From an uncultured virus (IMG/VR IMGVR_UViG_3300018050_001813) (taxonomy: Duplodnaviria; Heunggongvirae; Uroviricota; Caudoviricetes), in the IMG/VR virus record IMGVR_UViG_3300018050_001813, positions 1 through 64,000 of that record: a DNA stretch of 64,000 nt, one strand, 5' to 3'. Position 1 is the first letter of the stretch, and the number at the start of each line of letters is the position of its first letter. The translations under genes and the position numbers were made by a program. This document shows positions 41,684 to 64,000 of this stretch, piece by piece. The notes under the pieces are model-generated. The model was not told the DNA's origin. It saw only the letters and a program-made list of their open reading frames with translations, and did not search any database.

Positions 41684-43288
41684 TTATTTCCATGTCACTG
41701 ATGCTGGTTGCTTTTGCGTTGAAGTCTTAGAGAGCATTAGTATAGCATCATCCATCTGTTCTGTGGATGCCCAATCCCACTGCTCAAGAGCATATTTATA
41801 CATAGATACAACTGTCTCATGGTGCTTCATCCAAATAATATTCTTCATCTTTGGAGCATAAGTAAGAATATCATTTGTTTCAATTGGGCGAAGGGAATCG
41901 GAAACAACATAAAACTTAGTCTCTCTAATCAAAGAAACTATCTCTGCACCAGTCATATACTGAGTGGATTGAGCAAGAGCGTCGTAATCATAAGAGTGAT
42001 CGGTGTCAATCTTAGAAAGATGTATCTGGAAGATGTGTTTGCGTTCCTCATAAGAAGGAAGACCAACAAACATAATCTTATCAAAGCGGTCGGCACGCAA
42101 CATCTCTGGTCTCAAAGAATCAAGAGAGTTAGCTGCACAAAGAAGGAAAGTATCCTCTGGCAATTCCTGAAGACCAGTTAGGAACTCTCCATGCACACGA
42201 TCAGTGGTGCCACCATCAACATGGGAAGAGCTGGAGCCACCACTAAGATCTCGACCAAACTCGTCAATCCAAACGCACAAAGGAGACATAGCGCGAATCT
42301 GCTTAAAGACTGCACGCATGTTAGCCTCCGATTGGCCAATGAAAGAATTCATAACCTGACTGATACCAGTGCGAGCAAGATCAAGATCAAGCTCTTTGGC
42401 GGTTGCCTGACAAATAGCAGACTTGCCAGTACCAGGAACGCCAACCATCAACAGTCTTCTAATTGGAGTGACGCCGAAAGAAGCAGTGCGCTGCTGGTCT
42501 TTGCGAAGAATGGCAGTACGGCGAATGATATCTTTAATATTATCAAGACCACCAATATCAGAAAAAGATATTGCAGGCTTAACTATTTCAAGAATACCAT
42601 TCTTCTTTATATTTGCCATCTTGACGTCATAAATATACTTGGGGTCAATTGTAGAGTTATTAACAACAGACATCAAGCAAAGATCAATAAACTGCGACTC
42701 ACATAGACCAATACCAGCATTGACGACATCTTTTACAGAAACATTATTAAGAAGTCGATCATGAGAAGCGGTATTGATATGATTGACTATTGTTGCTAGC
42801 TCTTGAGGTGTTGGAATAGAATCCTCTAAAACATTGAAAAGATGGAGAAAATCCTCAGGGCACTCAAGAGAAGAAACGAAAATAAATTGAAGCGGCATAG
42901 CTGCAATATCATCAGACCAAAAAGCTGAACGGTAAGCAGACTTAAAGTGAGAAAGAATAGAAGAGTATGGAGAGATTGCATCTGCCGGAGAAGAAGCAAT
43001 ATTTACAATATAAGTAGAACGAGTAAGAGATTTCTCAGTAGTAAGATAGTGAAGAGCTATCTGAGGATCAAAAGTTACAATATGACTTTCTGAACTCATC
43101 TCTGGATAAGTAGGATTTTCAACAAGAATAGGCTTCCATTTGCCATCAACAAATTTAGAAAAGCCATTGAGAAAATCTATAGTATAAAAATTTCGAGAAA
43201 TAGTAGAAGTAATGATATCGGTAACTCTAGAGGGATCAGATGAGTGAACCCAAAGGTTAGGATATCCGAGTTTAATTTTATCAAACAT
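41684..43288 (-). CDS. AAA+ ATPase (Ycf46-like architecture)
   Basis: FSDIGGLDNIK; Walker A GVPGTGKS; Walker B VWIDE; SRH PEMLRADRFD. Confidence 0.9.
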   Translation of the reverse strand: MFDKIKLGYPNLWVHSSDPSRVTDIITSTISRNFYTIDFLNGFSKFVDGKWKPILVENPTYPEMSSESHIVTFDPQIALHYLTTEKSLTRSTYIVNIASSPADAISPYSSILSHFKSAYRSAFWSDDIAAMPLQFIFVSSLECPEDFLHLFNVLEDSIPTPQELATIVNHINTASHDRLLNNVSVKDVVNAGIGLCESQFIDLCLMSVVNNSTIDPKYIYDVKMANIKKNGILEIVKPAISFSDIGGLDNIKDIIRRTAILRKDQQRTASFGVTPIRRLLMVGVPGTGKSAICQATAKELDLDLARTGISQVMNSFIGQSEANMRAVFKQIRAMSPLCVWIDEFGRDLSGGSSSSHVDGGTTDRVHGEFLTGLQELPEDTFLLCAANSLDSLRPEMLRADRFDKIMFVGLPSYEERKHIFQIHLSKIDTDHSYDYDALAQSTQYMTGAEIVSLIRETKFYVVSDSLRPIETNDILTYAPKMKNIIWMKHHETVVSMYKYALEQWDWASTEQMDDAILMLSKTSTQKQPASVTWK

Positions 43289-56615: not shown

Positions 56616-58289
56616 TTACCACTTAGATCGTGAATATTTAATTTTGTTATCCAACCAAGCTGGTCTTGGATTGGCTTCATAATATTTAGAAATGATTTGA
56701 CTAGCAGTTCCTTTAGTCATATCAGAAGTAACGGGAACACCAATTCTTTTAAGAAGTTTTTTCTGTGCGTCAGTTGGACCATCAGATCGCCAAGCTGCAT
56801 CAGAATCAATAAGCTTTGTATCAAATCTTTTCATGATCCATTTGTCGCTACGAACAAAAGCATCTCGCATATCTTCAGGATAACCTAAGAATGTAGTTTT
56901 TAATCCTTCAGATGTACGATGCCTATGTTCAACGGTCCATCTTCCTAAAGTATCAACATATATTCTAAGAGAATTATTATTATCTATACCAAGATGATAA
57001 TCATTTTCTGCTACTTCAGCCCAAACAAAACGAGAATATTGTTGAACAAATTCGTTTGGTGGGGGCGGCATAAAAAGATTAATACGCTTATAAGCTAGTT
57101 CTATATCATCAGGTGCTAATACCCTAACGGCTTCACCAGGACAATAATCTTCGAGCTCTTTATATTTATTCGCTACGTCTGTTAATGATTGGCCTTGTAA
57201 ATCGAATTCTGGGGGTAGGCCGAGAAGAGATGGAAGGCCAATAGGTTTGCGACCCTTTGTGGTGTCGGCAAAATCTAAAATGGTGCAATGAGGTTTTCCT
57301 TCATATAGTCTTGTGCCTCTACCAACAATTTGCGTATATAAGAGAGTAGATCTAGTAGGTCTAGCAAGTAAAATTGCTTCTACGGATGGTTCGTCGAATC
57401 CTTCCGTAAGAACTCCAACATTGATGAGGACTCGCGTTTCACCGCTAGCAAAACGCGCCAGAATATCTCTACGATCATCTGTACTAGAAACACCTAATAT
57501 TACCTCATTTGTTATTTGCGCTTGCCCAAAGGATAGGGCCAGGTTTTGGGCATGTCTGACTCCGGCAGCGAAAACAAGGGCTTTCGCATTAGGGACCAGA
57601 TCATTATAAGCAGCAACAATGGTAGCATTGCGCTGAGGATTATCAATAACATCTTCAAGTTGTGATTGGTTGTAGTCTCCATCATTTGTTTCTACTCCTG
57701 AAATATCTGTGTCTGTTTTAATCCTATATCCTACCAGAGGAGATAGATATCCGTCTTGTATAAGATCTTGAATTGTTTTATAATATACTATTTCTTGAAA
57801 AACATCAGTAAGACGAACACTGTCACTACGTTGTGGAGTAGCTGTTACTCCAAGTAGAAACGACGGATTGAAGTAATCCAGGATACGACGATACGTAGGA
57901 GCCGCTGCATGATGTGCCTCATCTATAACTATGCTATTAAAGTAGTCAGGTGGATACTTTTGTATTCGAGTTGATTGAGCTCTACCAAGAGTTGGAACAC
58001 TAGCTACAACAACATCTACATGTCCAGCATGGTTTTCGCCTTGTTCAATTTCTACAGTTAAATCAGGATTAGACCAAGATATTTTTTCTTTTGCCTGATG
58101 AAGAAGTTCTTCTCTGTGAGCTAGAACAAGCATAGGTAGGCTTTTTTGTTTGAACTGTGGAAGGTGGGAAAAGATAACAGTTTTCCCTGCACCAGTAGGG
58201 AGGACAACAAGTTGACGGACTATACCCTTTTCAGAAAAAGATACAACAGAATCTAAAGCTTCTTGTTGGTATGGTCTGAGTTGCAACAT
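56616..58289 (-). CDS. SF2 DEAD/DEAH-box helicase (ResIII/Irc3-like)
   Basis: LRPYQ, LPTGAGKT, IDEAHH, TATP, LTEGFD, QIVGRGTR. Confidence 0.93.
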   Translation of the reverse strand: MLQLRPYQQEALDSVVSFSEKGIVRQLVVLPTGAGKTVIFSHLPQFKQKSLPMLVLAHREELLHQAKEKISWSNPDLTVEIEQGENHAGHVDVVVASVPTLGRAQSTRIQKYPPDYFNSIVIDEAHHAAAPTYRRILDYFNPSFLLGVTATPQRSDSVRLTDVFQEIVYYKTIQDLIQDGYLSPLVGYRIKTDTDISGVETNDGDYNQSQLEDVIDNPQRNATIVAAYNDLVPNAKALVFAAGVRHAQNLALSFGQAQITNEVILGVSSTDDRRDILARFASGETRVLINVGVLTEGFDEPSVEAILLARPTRSTLLYTQIVGRGTRLYEGKPHCTILDFADTTKGRKPIGLPSLLGLPPEFDLQGQSLTDVANKYKELEDYCPGEAVRVLAPDDIELAYKRINLFMPPPPNEFVQQYSRFVWAEVAENDYHLGIDNNNSLRIYVDTLGRWTVEHRHRTSEGLKTTFLGYPEDMRDAFVRSDKWIMKRFDTKLIDSDAAWRSDGPTDAQKKLLKRIGVPVTSDMTKGTASQIISKYYEANPRPAWLDNKIKYSRSKW

Positions 58290-58493
58290 GATGTCCCCCC
58301 TAACGGTTTAGTTGAATTCAAGTTCTGTTAAATAATATTCAGAGTCCATAAGGCGTCTGATGTTTTGCTCAAACTCCTCATCTGACATAACATATGATTT
58401 TACCATATGGGGAGTTTGATATTTGTTTGCGCTACAGTTGGTAACGGCAATGTATTTAATTTCTTTGTCTTGCATTATTATTCATTTTCTATG

Positions 58494-59090
58494 TTACTGA
58501 TGAATTGCACTATAATATGCAATTTTAAGGGAATCAAATATCTGAAGCGAAGCTCCAGAATAACTAAGATACGAAAGACATTCGTGAACAGTATATGGCG
58601 AGGAATCTAAGTGAGTGAACATAAAAAAAAGATTAATCATATCTTTTGTAGGACCTTCAAAGTTTGTGTCAAGAAGGTTCTGAGTAGTAAAATGATCAGA
58701 GTGCCAAGTGATAGTTTTATCTTGATTTTTTGTATATGGAAGCTGAATTATATATCCTCGGTATTCTGAAATAAGAAAAAGTTGTAGACAATCAATTTCT
58801 TGATTATCAGAATTTTTAATAATAGAATCCAAGGAAATTAAAGCACAGCTAGAATCTAAACAAGGATAAAGATAAAGTGCTTCAGCGAGCTTAGATAAAG
58901 TATTGGAAAAAGACTGCTGAGGAGCAGGAGTGACAACTACTTGACGAGTTTTTTCATTCTTAAAAAATGTTATCATAGGATGGTATTTAGCATCACGAGA
59001 TGCTGTATCCATCAAAACATTTTGAAGAATATTAATTTCTTCATCAATAATTGCACATTCTTCTTTAATTTTTTCTAGATCGTATGTCAT
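58494..59090 (-). CDS. Hypothetical protein
   Basis: 198-aa ORF with RBS. Confidence 0.6.
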   Translation of the reverse strand: MTYDLEKIKEECAIIDEEINILQNVLMDTASRDAKYHPMITFFKNEKTRQVVVTPAPQQSFSNTLSKLAEALYLYPCLDSSCALISLDSIIKNSDNQEIDCLQLFLISEYRGYIIQLPYTKNQDKTITWHSDHFTTQNLLDTNFEGPTKDMINLFFMFTHLDSSPYTVHECLSYLSYSGASLQIFDSLKIAYYSAIHQ

Positions 59091-59097
59091 ATCTGTC

Positions 59098-59424
59098 CTA
59101 TAAAAGAACCATTATAGCACTAAAAAGTGCGTAGGTTCCATAAAGATAAAGGAATAAAGCGGAGAAGAAAACAAAAGAACTGGAAGCTGTCAACATAATG
59201 ATAGAGAACAATACTGTTTCTACAGCCCAATAGCTGATTAGTGAAGCAGCTTTTGTTTCGTCTTTACGAAAAAAGGCAATAGACTTTCCAAGAGCTTTAC
59301 CAAGCTTATGAAAGATGTTTTTATTTTTCTTAGCAGGGACAGCTAAAGCATAGGTATACGTATAAGCGTTTCCGGTAGCAATAGTTGGATTATGCATTTG
59401 AACAAGAGCATTAATAGTATTCAT
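59098..59424 (-). CDS. Membrane protein
   Basis: C-terminal hydrophobic helices. Confidence 0.6.
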   Translation of the reverse strand: MNTINALVQMHNPTIATGNAYTYTYALAVPAKKNKNIFHKLGKALGKSIAFFRKDETKAASLISYWAVETVLFSIIMLTASSSFVFFSALFLYLYGTYALFSAIMVLL

Positions 59425-59583
59425 AAAACTTCCTTTCGTTTTTGAATAATTATTTCATTTTGAGGAAGCCATCCAAACCAATTTGTCTTGAGACTTTTTA
59501 GAAGAATAGATCCCTGCCGATTTGAATTCTCAATGAATTCAAAATCAGGACCAGCTTCATTGATACGGTTTCGTGTACGACCA

Positions 59584-60048
59584 CTAGCTGTCTGTGGATT
59601 TTTCTTGATTGTTAAAATTATCATTAATAATATTCCTAAAAGTTTTATCTCTTTCGCGATTCTGTTTAATGACATCAACGATCTGCTGAGCGAGCTCTTC
59701 AAGATCGTCTTTAAGATCTTCAGGAACTTCATGATCTTGTTCATAGATGTCAATATGCTCCTGAAGTTGTTCAGGAGTCATTTGAAGAGTTTCGGCATAT
59801 TCATTAATATAATTTCCGATAAGAGTATAATGATAAATATCTTCATCAGACAAACCAGTTTCTCTTTGAAGATGTTCATGAGCAGCATGAACTGGTCTTA
59901 CTTTAAGAAAAGCTTCAGTAGTACTATCAGTAATTTGATTCATATAATAGATGAACAAATCCTGTTTACGACGGAAAAGCCACAGGCACTTCAATGCATG
60001 AAATTTGTCTGGATGAAAATTATCAGGAGTGTAATCATTAATATTCAT
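59584..60048 (-). CDS. Acidic hypothetical protein
   Basis: 154-aa ORF coupled to the upstream gene. Confidence 0.6.
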   Translation of the reverse strand: MNINDYTPDNFHPDKFHALKCLWLFRRKQDLFIYYMNQITDSTTEAFLKVRPVHAAHEHLQRETGLSDEDIYHYTLIGNYINEYAETLQMTPEQLQEHIDIYEQDHEVPEDLKDDLEELAQQIVDVIKQNRERDKTFRNIINDNFNNQEKSTDS

Positions 60049-60049
60049 T

Positions 60050-60658
60050 TTAATATCCTGCGACTTTATAATCGAGTTGCTCTTCTGTCAGATTTCCGTT
60101 GGCACGATTTTCCATAAATTTGTCGTAGTCATCACGAGTATTTTTGGAGATCTGCCAAACATTAATGCCCCAACGATCTGGATGAGCATTCTCTACCCAG
60201 TGAGGATTTTTAGTATTAAACATAAAAACCTCTCCGCCTGTTAAATCATAACGCCCTACGGGCACTGATTCATGAAGGCCGGGTTGCCAAAAATATTGGT
60301 CATTAGAACGCTCATAGTACCAAGTAACTTTACCAAGATTGATAGACATACCTCGGTAATCAGCGTAACGCGCATCACGATGACGCCTAATATTGCCACC
60401 CTTAGTGACAAGAACTGCTTCAGGAGTAAATCCTGGAGGAGAAATAAGACGAATATAATTCATAATTCTTTCGTCTTCAAATCCTACGTGCCAAGTAGCA
60501 GAAGATGTAAGGGGTGGTGCAGTTTGGATCCAAAGCTGACGACGACCCTTAGCAGCTCCTTGGCTATTAATGATCATGTGAGGTAGGATAGTTTCGTTAA
60601 GATAATCAACAATAGATTTTTGATTATCTGCAGAAATTGTTTTAATATACTCTTCCAT
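60050..60658 (-). CDS. 2OG-Fe(II) oxygenase-like (AlkB-type fold) protein
   Basis: IRRHRD...INLG...NPHWV...DRWGINVW (HxD...H...R); likely start MEEYIK at 60658 with GGAGA RBS. Confidence 0.6.
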   Translation of the reverse strand: MEEYIKTISADNQKSIVDYLNETILPHMIINSQGAAKGRRQLWIQTAPPLTSSATWHVGFEDERIMNYIRLISPPGFTPEAVLVTKGGNIRRHRDARYADYRGMSINLGKVTWYYERSNDQYFWQPGLHESVPVGRYDLTGGEVFMFNTKNPHWVENAHPDRWGINVWQISKNTRDDYDKFMENRANGNLTEEQLDYKVAGY

Positions 60659-60737
60659 AATATATATTTCTCCCAAATAAAATAAAAGGTTCAGATTTTT
60701 GTATGAACTATTATTTTTTAAAAACACTTAATCTTCA

Positions 60738-61503
60738 TGTTACGTAATCGTGTTGTATGGTTCATTTCCAGGCGTTGTTACAATTGCACGCGCTTGATTC
60801 ATTCTGGTATCTTAATATAAGTCAACGGTATTGATTCATTCGACCCAAATGATATAAATCGCTCGCGATAATTCATTCAAACTGGGTGTTACAATTCTGA
60901 AGATTTGATTCATTCTACTGGGATGTTACAATTCGTACTGCGTGATTCATTCTTTCTGCTTGTTACTAATTATTCATGATGATTCATTCGGGTACGCTGT
61001 TACTAATTTTTCCATTTGATTCATTCGTTCAATATAATACAAGTCAAAAAGGCTGATTCATTCTAGAGCTATAATACAATTCGGATAGAGTGATTCATTC
61101 TGAACAATTGATACAGTTCATGGAAGGTGATTCATTCATGAAGTGTGATATTTATTTTTGGGTTTGATTCATTCATCAACAATGATACTAATCTTAGAAA
61201 ATAATTCATTTATTGTGAGTGTTACAAATCATTGAGTATAATTCATTCGTCCGATTTGTTATTAATCATATTTGATGATTCATTCTTAGATGATGTTACT
61301 AATCTATCCTTTTGATTCATTCGCGGTCGATGTTACTAATTCCATATCGTGATTCATTCAATTCGGCTGTTACTAATTTTTCCATTTGATTCATTCTGGC
61401 AACTTGTTACTAATTACGCTTTTTGATTCATTCGCTTTCGTTGTTACTAATCGGTCAGAATGATTCATTCATTCGCGCTGTTACTAATCGGGCCCATTGA
61501 TTT
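60738..61503 (-). ncRNA. TIGR-like dual-repeat, dual-spacer array (20 full 37-bp units)
   Basis: + strand TGATTCATTC-N8-TGTTACTAAT-N9, first repeat starting every 37 bp from 60758 to 61461 with a partial copy at 61498; directly downstream of a Nop-domain gene; strand inferred from that gene. Confidence 0.88.
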
Positions 61504-61530
61504 AAATTTTATTATAAAAAATTTGTATAC
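61504..61530 (-). promoter_or_regulatory. AT-rich leader with TATAAT, putative array promoter
   Basis: Minus strand tatacaaattttttataataaaattt just upstream of the first repeat. Confidence 0.4.
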
Positions 61531-61576
61531 CGAGGTACACCCATATTTCTGGATATACCCCGGCAACAAACACTAG

Positions 61577-62503
61577 TCATGCAAATGGATTGTTAGGAAT
61601 AGCAATTTCATGTACGTGTCCACCATGTTCAATGATGTACGGGCGAGGCGCAGGTGTGCCATGATGAGCCTGATATGCCACTGCGTGATAGTGGCTCAGG
61701 AAGATCTTGGCAGCAAAGCGTCGTGCTTGTGCATCAATCTGTGCAGGAGGAAGCTTGCCTGATTCGAGACAGGTACGAGTAGGATTATTGCCCCACTTCT
61801 TAGTGGTAAGAATCTGCTTAGCAAATTCTGCATAATCTCCAGCTTCGTTCTTTTCGATGCGGCGAGCCTTATCCTGCTTGTAGAGATGACCGTAGAAGCA
61901 CTGATCTTTATTGGAGAACTTCATGAAGCTCTGACCAATCTTCCAAGTGAGAGTCTTCAACTGTGCGTTGAAGGGGCGCTTCTGGCCTTTTTCCCACTTG
62001 ATAGTAGGATCAATACCAGCGTAACGCCAGATTGCTCCAGCAGTCGGTGCCTTCTCGATGTCAATATGAGCAACGAGTCCAGCAGTAATAACTGGTCCAA
62101 TGCCATACTGGCTTTTAGCCCAGTTGCCGACTACGAACTGATCACCAAAGTGATCAAGCGGAGAGACAAGTGACTTCTCTAGCATCTCAATAACAGTTGC
62201 ATAATAGCTGAGCAGTTCATGAGGACTACCAGCCTTAGTCAAGTCACGGACTTGGTTGTTATAACCAAGGCGTGCTTTCTGCAAGTCATAATAAAGCGAG
62301 ACAAGTTCGCGTGCGGAGCGTCGATCAAGATCAACTTCCATCTTGCGAACATCCTTATTGAGGACTCGCTGATTGAATTGAAAGAAATCGAATGCTTGAC
62401 GAACAATGTCGTCAGGATGAGTTTGATCTTCAAGAATATCATCAAGAAGATGATCATCTTCATGGATTTCATTGTCATTAATGTGGAATTCTGCGGAAGT
62501 CAT
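61577..62503 (-). CDS. TasA-like Nop-domain (IS110/Transposase_20-related) RNA-binding protein lacking a nuclease domain
   Basis: Coiled coil (YYDLQKARLGYNNQ); GIGPVITAGLVAHID...AIWRYAGIDP; no N-terminal DEDD RuvC; adjacent dual-repeat array. Confidence 0.82.
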   Translation of the reverse strand: MTSAEFHINDNEIHEDDHLLDDILEDQTHPDDIVRQAFDFFQFNQRVLNKDVRKMEVDLDRRSARELVSLYYDLQKARLGYNNQVRDLTKAGSPHELLSYYATVIEMLEKSLVSPLDHFGDQFVVGNWAKSQYGIGPVITAGLVAHIDIEKAPTAGAIWRYAGIDPTIKWEKGQKRPFNAQLKTLTWKIGQSFMKFSNKDQCFYGHLYKQDKARRIEKNEAGDYAEFAKQILTTKKWGNNPTRTCLESGKLPPAQIDAQARRFAAKIFLSHYHAVAYQAHHGTPAPRPYIIEHGGHVHEIAIPNNPFA

Positions 62504-62565
62504 AAATACTCCTTAAGTCTATTAACAAATTTTTTTATTATATAGCGATTCTTTTATGTATGTAG

Positions 62566-62612
62566 AAAAAAGTTGTGGAGGGACCCGATAGGGCAGGTCC
62601 CTCCACAACTTT
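62566..62612 (-). terminator. Rho-independent terminator separating the upstream gene from tasA-like
   Basis: aaagttgtggagggacc / ggtccctccacaacttt 17-bp stem; T-run on the minus strand; TATAAT and AAGGAG follow before the tasA-like start. Confidence 0.8.
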
Positions 62613-62627
62613 GTATGAACATGCTGT

Positions 62628-64000
62628 TTAGTACAGCGACTTCTCCAGCTTTCTGACAGGAGGCTTAGGGCTGACGAAGACGATAGGAGACTGCTCCGCG
62701 TGAGCTCTCTGAAACTCAAGCGGATCAGTATATTCCACTTCGATGCCTTGGGCATCCTTCCAGAGCCAACTCTTCTTGATATCTGTAACAATCTTCATGC
62801 GATCTTTGACAAGTTCGCGATGGGCAGAACGAGCAATTCCGTAATACTGAAGAGCTTCTTCAAGATACGGAAAGACGAATCTGTTCATCACAACCTGGTC
62901 AGTGACCTTACCAGTAGAAGTAGGGTTCTTGATTGATTCAGAATAGAGTGCAATCACAAAGTCATATGAATCGAGAATTCGCTCATAAGAATTGATCTTG
63001 TCAACAATATCTGAATACAAATGTTCCCACGAAGAACGCTGGATTGCTCCAGAGCTCTTCGTTACTTCTGTGGAATTAGTATTGTACAGGTTCATTCGGA
63101 ATTGGCGAAGAACTGGATAAGCATGATGGCGAAGACGATTGCCAAGTTGGTGAATGATCTCATCAGGACGGGCGTTCTTCTGAGACCAATCACGAACGCT
63201 GTTTACGTAACGCTTGAAATAAGTGTCACATAGTGCGTTCAGCTGCGAGAGCTTACCGTGATAAAGTTCCACGGTTTCGCCTCGCTTAAGGAATCGCTTC
63301 ATTCCACGCTTGTACCAAAAGTCCTCATCAATCGGTTTGCCGGATTTGATGACTTCACGCATCATCTGTTCGGCTTCACGATCAATAGCAAGGACATCAG
63401 CGGCGTTGTCGGGATTAATGCACTTATCGATAGCAGTTTCCAAAGTGCACAATTGGACAGGTCGATGCTTAGCAATGACCATAGAATGGGCCATTGCGGC
63501 GTTGACGAATCCACCGACGTTACCACCAGCCATAGCAATTTTGATGTCACGAATGACATCATCTTGAGTGTAAGGGCCAGTTCGCTTTACCTTAGGCAAT
63601 GCTTCGGAAGGAAGTCCAGTATACTGGATCTTATTCGCAAAGATTGAGCTAGACAAGCGAGGAGGCCATCCACGACCGTTAACTTCGGGGAACATGACGG
63701 GAGTACCATCTGCCTTATGCCACGTGGGGGCCCAAGAGCCCTCCACATAGCGGAAGATGGTGTATTCGCCGTAGCCATTTGGTGAACGAGTGGCTACAAC
63801 GACTTTCTCTCCGTCATAATCTCCGCCTTGCATGGTGCGGTAGAAGAGCTTGAAGAAGTCATCTTCATCCATACCACCATGGCTCTCATACATTTCGAGC
63901 CAATCGCAATCGTTAACGACGTGACAACCAAGAGCATTGCAACGTACGATTGTATCCTCTTCAACGATCATATCATATCCTGCCATGCGAGCAAGGCTTT
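62628..64000 (-). CDS. Large protein, 5'-truncated by the window; possible two-barrel (RdRP/YonO-like) polymerase C-terminal part
   Basis: Frame stays open to the window end; GGMDEDD, GGDYDGE, RSP, NVGGFVN...AID motifs; functional call is tentative. Confidence 0.35.
   Translation of the reverse strand, partial: SLARMAGYDMIVEEDTIVRCNALGCHVVNDCDWLEMYESHGGMDEDDFFKLFYRTMQGGDYDGEKVVVATRSPNGYGEYTIFRYVEGSWAPTWHKADGTPVMFPEVNGRGWPPRLSSSIFANKIQYTGLPSEALPKVKRTGPYTQDDVIRDIKIAMAGGNVGGFVNAAMAHSMVIAKHRPVQLCTLETAIDKCINPDNAADVLAIDREAEQMMREVIKSGKPIDEDFWYKRGMKRFLKRGETVELYHGKLSQLNALCDTYFKRYVNSVRDWSQKNARPDEIIHQLGNRLRHHAYPVLRQFRMNLYNTNSTEVTKSSGAIQRSSWEHLYSDIVDKINSYERILDSYDFVIALYSESIKNPTSTGKVTDQVVMNRFVFPYLEEALQYYGIARSAHRELVKDRMKIVTDIKKSWLWKDAQGIEVEYTDPLEFQRAHAEQSPIVFVSPKPPVRKLEKSLY

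Follow-up and report, generated by a model that had tools for sequence, protein, structure and literature searches.

TIGR arrays have been described as consisting of two alternating repeats of 8–12 nt, with spacers that are usually 9 nt long (PMC12045711). In the same account, the repeats of TaTasR have UG (box D) at their start and CCA (box C) at their end, two motifs that covary between edge and loop; guides of 36 nt begin and finish in mid-edge, no clear base-specific contacts are described for the loop linker, and the pseudo-symmetric RNA is read by a C2-symmetric dimer, like Nop5 in box C/D RNPs (PMC12045711). FpTIGR-TasA of Flavonifractor plautii combines a nuclease-less Tas, which binds unit-length guides, with a dual-repeat array having 18 variable nucleotides (9 + 9) and 36-nt guides, while 16 variable nucleotides are given for SpTIGR (PMC12045711). 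SpTIGR-TasH of Salicola phage CGphi29 (NC_020844; PDB 9w03, 9w04, and 21kl; PMC12045711, PMC13421893) is a phage-borne system with a dual-repeat array located downstream of tas and on the tas strand, and Y289 and H296 of SpTasH form the catalytic pair of a metal-independent guide processing (PMC13421893). A Y/H loop that processes guides in dual-repeat systems is also described in a preprint (10.64898/2026.09.09.750476), in which TasA is presented as an RNA-guided repressor and a block of transcription is demonstrated for a TasA other than the one treated here.

The DNA analyzed in the present study, called the window below, is a stretch of 64,000 nt corresponding to positions 1 to 64,000 of IMG/VR record IMGVR_UViG_3300018050_001813. 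The full record is a viral sequence of 77.8 kb, estimated to be 37% complete, with genes for tail-fibre, endolysin, polymerase, and helicase, and a megablast search of 58000–64000 against deposited phages gave no match. In this DNA, a short-period array adjoins a Tas gene, and we consider it very probable that the region is the dual-repeat TIGR array of a phage TIGR-TasA system. A strict period of 37 nt runs across 60758–61497, where 20 units of exactly 37 nt can be laid out in register, and the same period was returned by Tandem Repeats Finder and by a repeat finder. The 10-mer TGATTCATTC, or a variant of it differing at one or two bases, is present in 19 copies from 60795 to 61461 in exact 37-nt steps, and a diverged copy at 60758 brings the unit count to 20. 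A unit reads TGATTCATTC-N8-TGTTACTAAT-N9 on the + strand and GAATGAATCA-N8-RATTAGTAACA-N8 on the minus strand. In each unit of the array core (60758..61497, minus strand, 20 × 37 nt), the edge repeat GAATGAATCA (10 nt) is followed by spacer A (8 nt), the loop repeat RATTAGTAACA (11 nt), and spacer B (8 nt), and the two alternating kinds of repeat with two spacers per unit are the arrangement of a dual-repeat TIGR array. In the unit at 61434..61470 (minus strand), for example, the edge occupies 61470–61461, spacer A TTCTGACC 61460–61453, the loop GATTAGTAACA 61452–61442 with a purine at 61452, and spacer B ACGAAAGC 61441–61434. CRISPR and ordinary satellite DNA were ruled out by the repeat length of 10–11 nt, the presence of two alternating kinds, and the adjoining Tas gene.

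The original prediction placed the array at 60758..61497, which is right for the core, but the array reaches slightly further on both sides. A degenerate first edge repeat ATTTAAATCA (61498..61507, minus strand) marks its start 70 nt past the tasA stop codon, and a degenerate terminal unit, TACAACAC / GATTACGTAACA / TGAAGAT..., occupies 60721..60757 on the same strand and is retained also as the last unit of the near-identical relative L003. There are accordingly 20 full units and two degenerate end elements, or 21 guide-like units on the minus strand.

The tasA gene (61577..62503, minus strand), located upstream of the array, encodes a protein of 308 aa, which is composed of an acidic N-terminus (residues 1–43, predicted to be disordered), coiled coil helices (residues 61–121), a Nop-type RNA-binding domain, and a C-terminal loop with Y289 and H296. 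In a phmmer search against PDB, TaTIGR-TasR of a Thermoproteota archaeon (9mty) was the best sequence match among solved structures (E 4.9e-13), including the C-terminal EHGGHV stretch, and TasH (9w03 and others) was matched at E 3.9e-12. The protein is also matched by phrog_4285 (E 4e-42), and by the Pfam family Transposase_20 (IS110 C-terminal family) solely below its cutoff. When its AF2 model (pLDDT 72.7) was compared with PDB by Foldseek, the top ten hits were all TasR or TasH chains, followed by the IS621 recombinase. Since no HNH or RuvC domain was found by Pfam, and just about 60 residues are located ahead of the coiled coil, the protein is assigned to TasA. Its Y289/H296 align on Y289/H296 of SpTasH translated from NC_020844. 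When the first 40 residues were searched for in Table S1 of PMC12045711, row 3185 of sheet ProteinInfo (cluster node3431node) was found to contain the identical 308-aa sequence.

Ten related viral loci, on phage contigs of 180–211 kb, have been compared with the window. The six with at least 64% Tas identity (L002–L007, among which L004/L005 and L006/L007 are near-duplicate pairs) all carry both repeats and the 37-nt unit. The Tas proteins of the related loci belong to cluster node3431node too, except that of L008, which is in a neighboring cluster. Downstream of the array, a gene for 202 aa (60050..60658, minus strand) has no Pfam or PHROG match, and copies 66–99.5% identical to it follow the array in L002–L005; it is a conserved array neighbor, and nothing ties it to the system. 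Directly upstream of tasA, a protein of 855 aa (62628–63986 and beyond; ORF 62628–65195 in the full record) likewise has no Pfam or PHROG match and is conserved in the relatives, at other positions in L007 and L008. A sigma-70-like promoter match upstream of tasA (62537..62566, minus strand; 10 of 12 hexamer positions) is a weak candidate defined by consensus match only, and such sites occur in the region at shuffle level (11 versus a mean of 9.3).

When SpTIGR was re-parsed from NC_020844, its unit was AAGCGAGCCA-N8-AAGACAACCA-N8, that is, 10 + 8 + 10 + 8 = 36 nt, with one interval of 37 nt. The window array shares with it the 8-nt spacers A and B, the 10-nt edge, and repeats that open with a purine followed by A and end with CA, and differs from it in having an 11-nt loop and a 37-nt unit instead of a 10-nt loop and a 36-nt unit. 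The unit has 37 rather than 36 nt because of one additional base in the unconstrained loop linker, which measures 6 nt between RA and ACA in the window and 5 nt in SpTIGR of the Salicola phage; this base would sit in a stretch of the RNA left unread by the protein. SpTasH resembles the window protein in its homologous Nop domain and conserved Y289/H296 dyad, but it has an N-terminal HNH nuclease, whereas the window TasA is without a nuclease. FpTIGR-TasA, to which the window is likened by description (PMC12045711), agrees in the nuclease-less Tas and the dual-repeat array and differs in its 9 + 9 spacers and 36-nt guides. TaTIGR-TasR has 9-nt repeats (UG...CCA), 9-nt spacers, a RuvC nuclease, and W at the place of Y289 of the window TasA, and the likeness to it lies in the pseudo-symmetric RNA and the symmetric dimer (PMC12045711). 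The canonical 36-nt layout with 9 + 9 spacers, found in TaTIGR and FpTIGR, is therefore not that of the window, where the spacers are 8 nt and the unit is 37 nt.

Reading by a symmetric dimer and kinship with box C/D RNPs, both suggested in the original prediction, agree with the published structural model and do not constitute a new inference. Archaeal and eukaryotic box C/D sRNPs (Nop5/Nop56/Nop58) resemble TIGR systems in that their Nop-domain dimer is joined through a coiled coil and each RNA has two guides located between C and D boxes (PMC12045711). An Rfam scan of 60000–62000 gave nothing above threshold, the best hit being the C/D-box family snoR124 (24.4 bits versus a cutoff of 70, E 0.73). 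The K-turn motifs of box C/D RNAs are RUGAUGA and CUGA; the window array is without these boxes, and the target of TIGR is DNA, not RNA. A full-text literature search, with the supplementary array alignments of PMC12045711 outside its scope, returned no paper on a 37-nt tigRNA; the expression "37-nt" is absent from the main text of PMC12045711, and the value is within the ranges published there. The system, the option of 8 + 8 spacers, the symmetric dimer, and the box C/D kinship are thus already in print, and the same protein sequence is included in a published Tas catalogue.

Unit lengths have been counted in five parsed arrays (window, L002, L003, L004, and L007, with two out-of-register L002 intervals of 13 and 24 nt set aside): 69 of the 78 units have 37 nt and nine have 38 nt. 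The extra base of the 38-nt units is located after the purine or inside the loop in five of the nine, where spacer A still has 8 nt, and where spacer B meets the following edge in three, and its place is ambiguous in one. In the array L010:3923-4260, whose Tas identity is 40%, an 11-nt edge GAACGTAGTCA and 8-nt spacers are combined with loops of 8 to 11 nt, giving unit lengths of 35–38 nt in one array, with units of 35, 36, and 38 nt side by side. In this phage clade, therefore, neither the spacer length nor the place of the purine behind spacer A changes, whereas the loop linker varies in length, and this can be put as a rule: the distance from box C through the 8-nt spacer to the box D purine is constant and the linker is variable. 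Since the linker varies (units of 35–38 nt), arrays are poorly classified by unit length and better by spacer length, a point of relevance to array-finding software and to guide design with such TasA proteins. The window array does differ from the 36-nt, 9 + 9 layout, as had been pointed out at the outset, but the accompanying proposal that it may define a subtype is not supported, because SpTIGR already has 16 variable nucleotides arranged as 10 + 8 + 10 + 8 and in the relative with 40% identity both the loops (8–11 nt) and the units (35–38 nt) vary in length within one array. A 37-nt unit with two 8-nt guides is a small length variant of the layout in print.

Judging from the homologous systems, a TasA dimer would bind the precursor RNA, and the Y289/H296 dyad would cut inside each edge repeat, leaving guides of roughly 37 nt. 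Spacers A and B would then pair with opposite strands of adjacent 8-bp half-sites, and TasA, having no nuclease, may bind the DNA and block transcription instead of cutting. An 8-nt 3' overhang and a "C-5" rule of cleavage have been published (PMC12045711), from which we derive that the target strand should read as spacer A and then the reverse complement of spacer B; with such a target, the spacer 3' ends and both purines face the center of the site.

Targets have been searched for on several scales. When the 21 units were compared with the 77.8-kb record in four arrangements, with gaps of 0–2 nt and up to two mismatches, self-matches were at chance level and no exact opposite-strand match was found. 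The 71 unique units of five arrays gave no exact opposite-strand match in 661 kb (the window record and three related phages, arrays masked), and with one mismatch there were 6 and 3 opposite-strand matches versus 5 and 8 in two same-strand controls. The only exact match in the 661 kb belongs to a same-strand control: spacer A of unit 8, 2 nt, and spacer B at 43145–43162 (minus strand), inside ORF 41684–43288. This site, which does not have the published opposite-strand arrangement, recurs at the corresponding position in G001 and G002, three of the records thus carrying it; it is probably a chance match, and the version of the unit in L003 differs at two bases. A comparison of the guides with the arrays themselves gave 2-mismatch matches only, five in all.

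In a viral collection, unit 9, which is conserved in three arrays, had 79 matches in 38 families, and its letter-reversed control had 70 matches in 45 families; the largest family comprised 21 contigs for unit 9 versus six for the control. The candidate target in this family of 21 small viral contigs (L122:11095-11111, minus strand, with a 1-nt gap, in ORF L122:10527-11129) is located 18 nt past the start codon (ATG) of a lysine-rich ORF of 200 aa that adjoins a peptidase-like gene. No match to five contigs of the family was found for the other units with 0 or 1 mismatch in opposite-strand arrangements, and unit 7 had 23 matches in the collection, with no contig name common to the unit 9 list. 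The collection matches of units 9 and 7 are at chance level, and the candidate family is not distinguishable from chance.

On the + strand, the first base of the 9-nt segment (column 29) is C in 13 units, T in 6, and G in 1, which reproduces exactly the 19 pyrimidines in 20 units counted in the original prediction, and it carries 0.86 bit, versus 0.03–0.28 bit for the other 16 variable columns. If the purine share of the spacers is set at 0.486, as computed from the pooled column counts, the binomial probability of at least 19 purines in 20 on the minus strand is 1.2e-5. The comparison with arrays of homologs, which had been proposed as a check, shows the purine column to be kept: in 63 unique 37-nt units of five related arrays it is G44/A17/C1/T1 (61 of 63 purines, 0.94 bit), versus 1.1–2.0 bit in the other loop columns and 0.01–0.18 bit in the spacers, and P for at least 61 purines in 63 is 4e-17 at the same share. 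Since the purine is conserved above the spacer columns, the layout is 10 + 8 + 11 + 8, and the pooled columns support its behaving as a repeat position, with a preference for G over A like that at the start of the edge repeat (G55/A6/C1/T1 in the 63 units). In a rival reading, it pairs with the target, either in a 9 + 8 layout or in a symmetric form, where the two purines opening the loop and the edge would pair with the two central bp of an 18-bp footprint; the target would then be spacer A, R, Y, and the reverse complement of spacer B, an 8 + 2 + 8 site with a built-in central motif. We regard this as unlikely, although both purines would indeed meet at the site center together with the spacer 3' ends in the A-then-reverse-complement-of-B arrangement, TaTasR has 9-nt spacers and tolerates gaps of 1–2 bp (PMC12045711), and the purine is only semi-conserved at 0.94 bit. 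A base following arbitrary targets should not be a purine in 61 of 63 units, and the matching first base of the edge, which by convention is repeat, is even more fixed. Two further points against pairing are weak because the matches concerned are at chance level: the 1-nt gap in the large candidate target family is occupied by G, whereas the purine of unit 9 is A, and the predicted AC occurs in none of the 28 gap-2 matches of unit 9. In the preferred layout, with the purine inside the repeat, box D of the loop repeat begins with it, and it corresponds to the initial G of the edge repeat. Both repeats share the start RA, at the box D position, and the end WCA, at the box C position, with A at position 2 and the final A invariant in all 63 unique units; the RAWTR start and AWCA end originally noted fit the consensus of both repeats. 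The distinction made there between an edge-like repeat 1 and a loop-like repeat 2 also holds, exact consensus being found in 16 and 8 of the 20 units, respectively (counted from the unit listing), and the register layout confirms the minus-strand unit proposed with it. Pairing between box D and box C at the purine position was considered and is not supported by covariation, since the purine is A in 6 of the 20 window units, where it co-occurs with C near the loop end, and A cannot form a Watson–Crick pair with C.

This reading presupposes a strand, and transcription of the array most probably proceeds on the minus strand, either jointly with tasA or directly after it. This strand carries tasA and, between about 27 kb and 71 kb, nearly all of the called genes, and in each of the six loci whose Tas identity is at least 64% the array is located downstream of tas and on the tas strand. 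The minus strand is also the only one on which the repeats end with UCA (edge) and ACA (loop) before a spacer, comparable to the CCA of SpTIGR, which is experimentally oriented and in which both repeats end with this box C directly before the spacer. Compared with the SpTIGR edge, the minus-strand edge RARYGARYCA has 5 of 10 identical bases and 5 transitions, whereas the + strand edge has 0 of 10. The array also starts with a degenerate edge, comparable to the truncated first edge described for TIGR arrays (PMC12045711); at its other end, where a truncated edge and a terminator would be expected, the terminal unit is degenerate. Motif logic alone does not fix the strand, because the + strand repeats begin with UG, the box D of TaTasR. 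Each of them starts with TG in 17 of 20 units, so that a + strand transcript with the unit UGAUUCAUUC-N8-UGUUACUAAU-N9 would fit the "UG" rule of TaTasR. The ends of these + strand repeats, however, have no common C-box-like motif (UUC versus AAU/AAUY), and in view of the gene strand, the six loci, and the SpTIGR edge we consider + strand transcription extremely improbable. That the array is an inactive relic, a repeat tract neither expressed nor used any more, is very improbable in our judgment. It might be suspected from the TasA C-terminus deleted in the relative L003, and from the fact that neither a target nor a terminator was found: a simple scan gave no terminator-like site after the array, whereas SpTIGR ends with a clear terminator hairpin. 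Against it, the window tasA is intact with its catalytic dyad kept, and 16 of the 20 edge repeats have the consensus sequence exactly. The geometry is also preserved in arrays of relatives whose spacers are different, a pattern that speaks for selection acting on the repeats.

Comparison among near-identical phages provides information on changes in guides. The window array (60721–61507, 21 units) and that of L003 (L003:3961-4700, 19 units) have ten common units in the same order, and their flanks are about 99.3% identical in DNA (about 0.7% differing). At the tas-proximal end, six units of the window and four of L003 have no counterpart in the other array. A rare loop variant and six of the eight spacer A bases are common to window unit 12 and L003 unit 13, whose spacers B differ. 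L002 (L002:4004-5080, 28 units), whose TasA is 99% identical, has two units in common with the window, at L002 positions 16 and 20 in the distal half and in the same order, and L004:4044-4470 has none. It is possible, if somewhat doubtful, that the array records guide turnover, with polarized addition of units at the tas-proximal end and in-place replacement of half-units. If this is true, the comparison would provide direct evidence on the growth of TIGR arrays. Near-identical phages provide material for the unsolved problem of guide gain and loss in TIGR arrays, and their comparison may prove of more use than the geometry.

The tasA gene itself is a hot spot of divergence. Among 87 mismatches to L003 in 3851 aligned bases, 66 are located in 61600–62399, and the two sequences differ at about 7% of the bases within tasA. 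The window TasA is 99.3% identical to that of L002, and the flanking proteins of L002 are just 75–82% identical. This suggests, on the basis of the sequences compared, that tasA may have been exchanged between phage lineages. In L003, 82 nt are missing at the tasA 3' end (L003:3852; window 61572–61652), and the reading frame continues into the array region, so that the last 24 TasA residues, including the Y/H dyad, are gone. This loss could be real decay or an assembly error; the closest relative being without the dyad, some copies of the system may be decaying.

Several minor features of the guides have also been registered. Spacer A AATGGAAA and its loop are present twice in the window array (minus-strand units starting at 61396 and 61026) with different spacers B, and one whole unit is duplicated in the L002 array (offsets 90 and 906). 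In the 63 unique units from the window and L002–L007, the guides are G-poor, with about 15% G and 34% A in spacer A and about 20% G in spacer B, and the last base of spacer B is G in just four of the 63.
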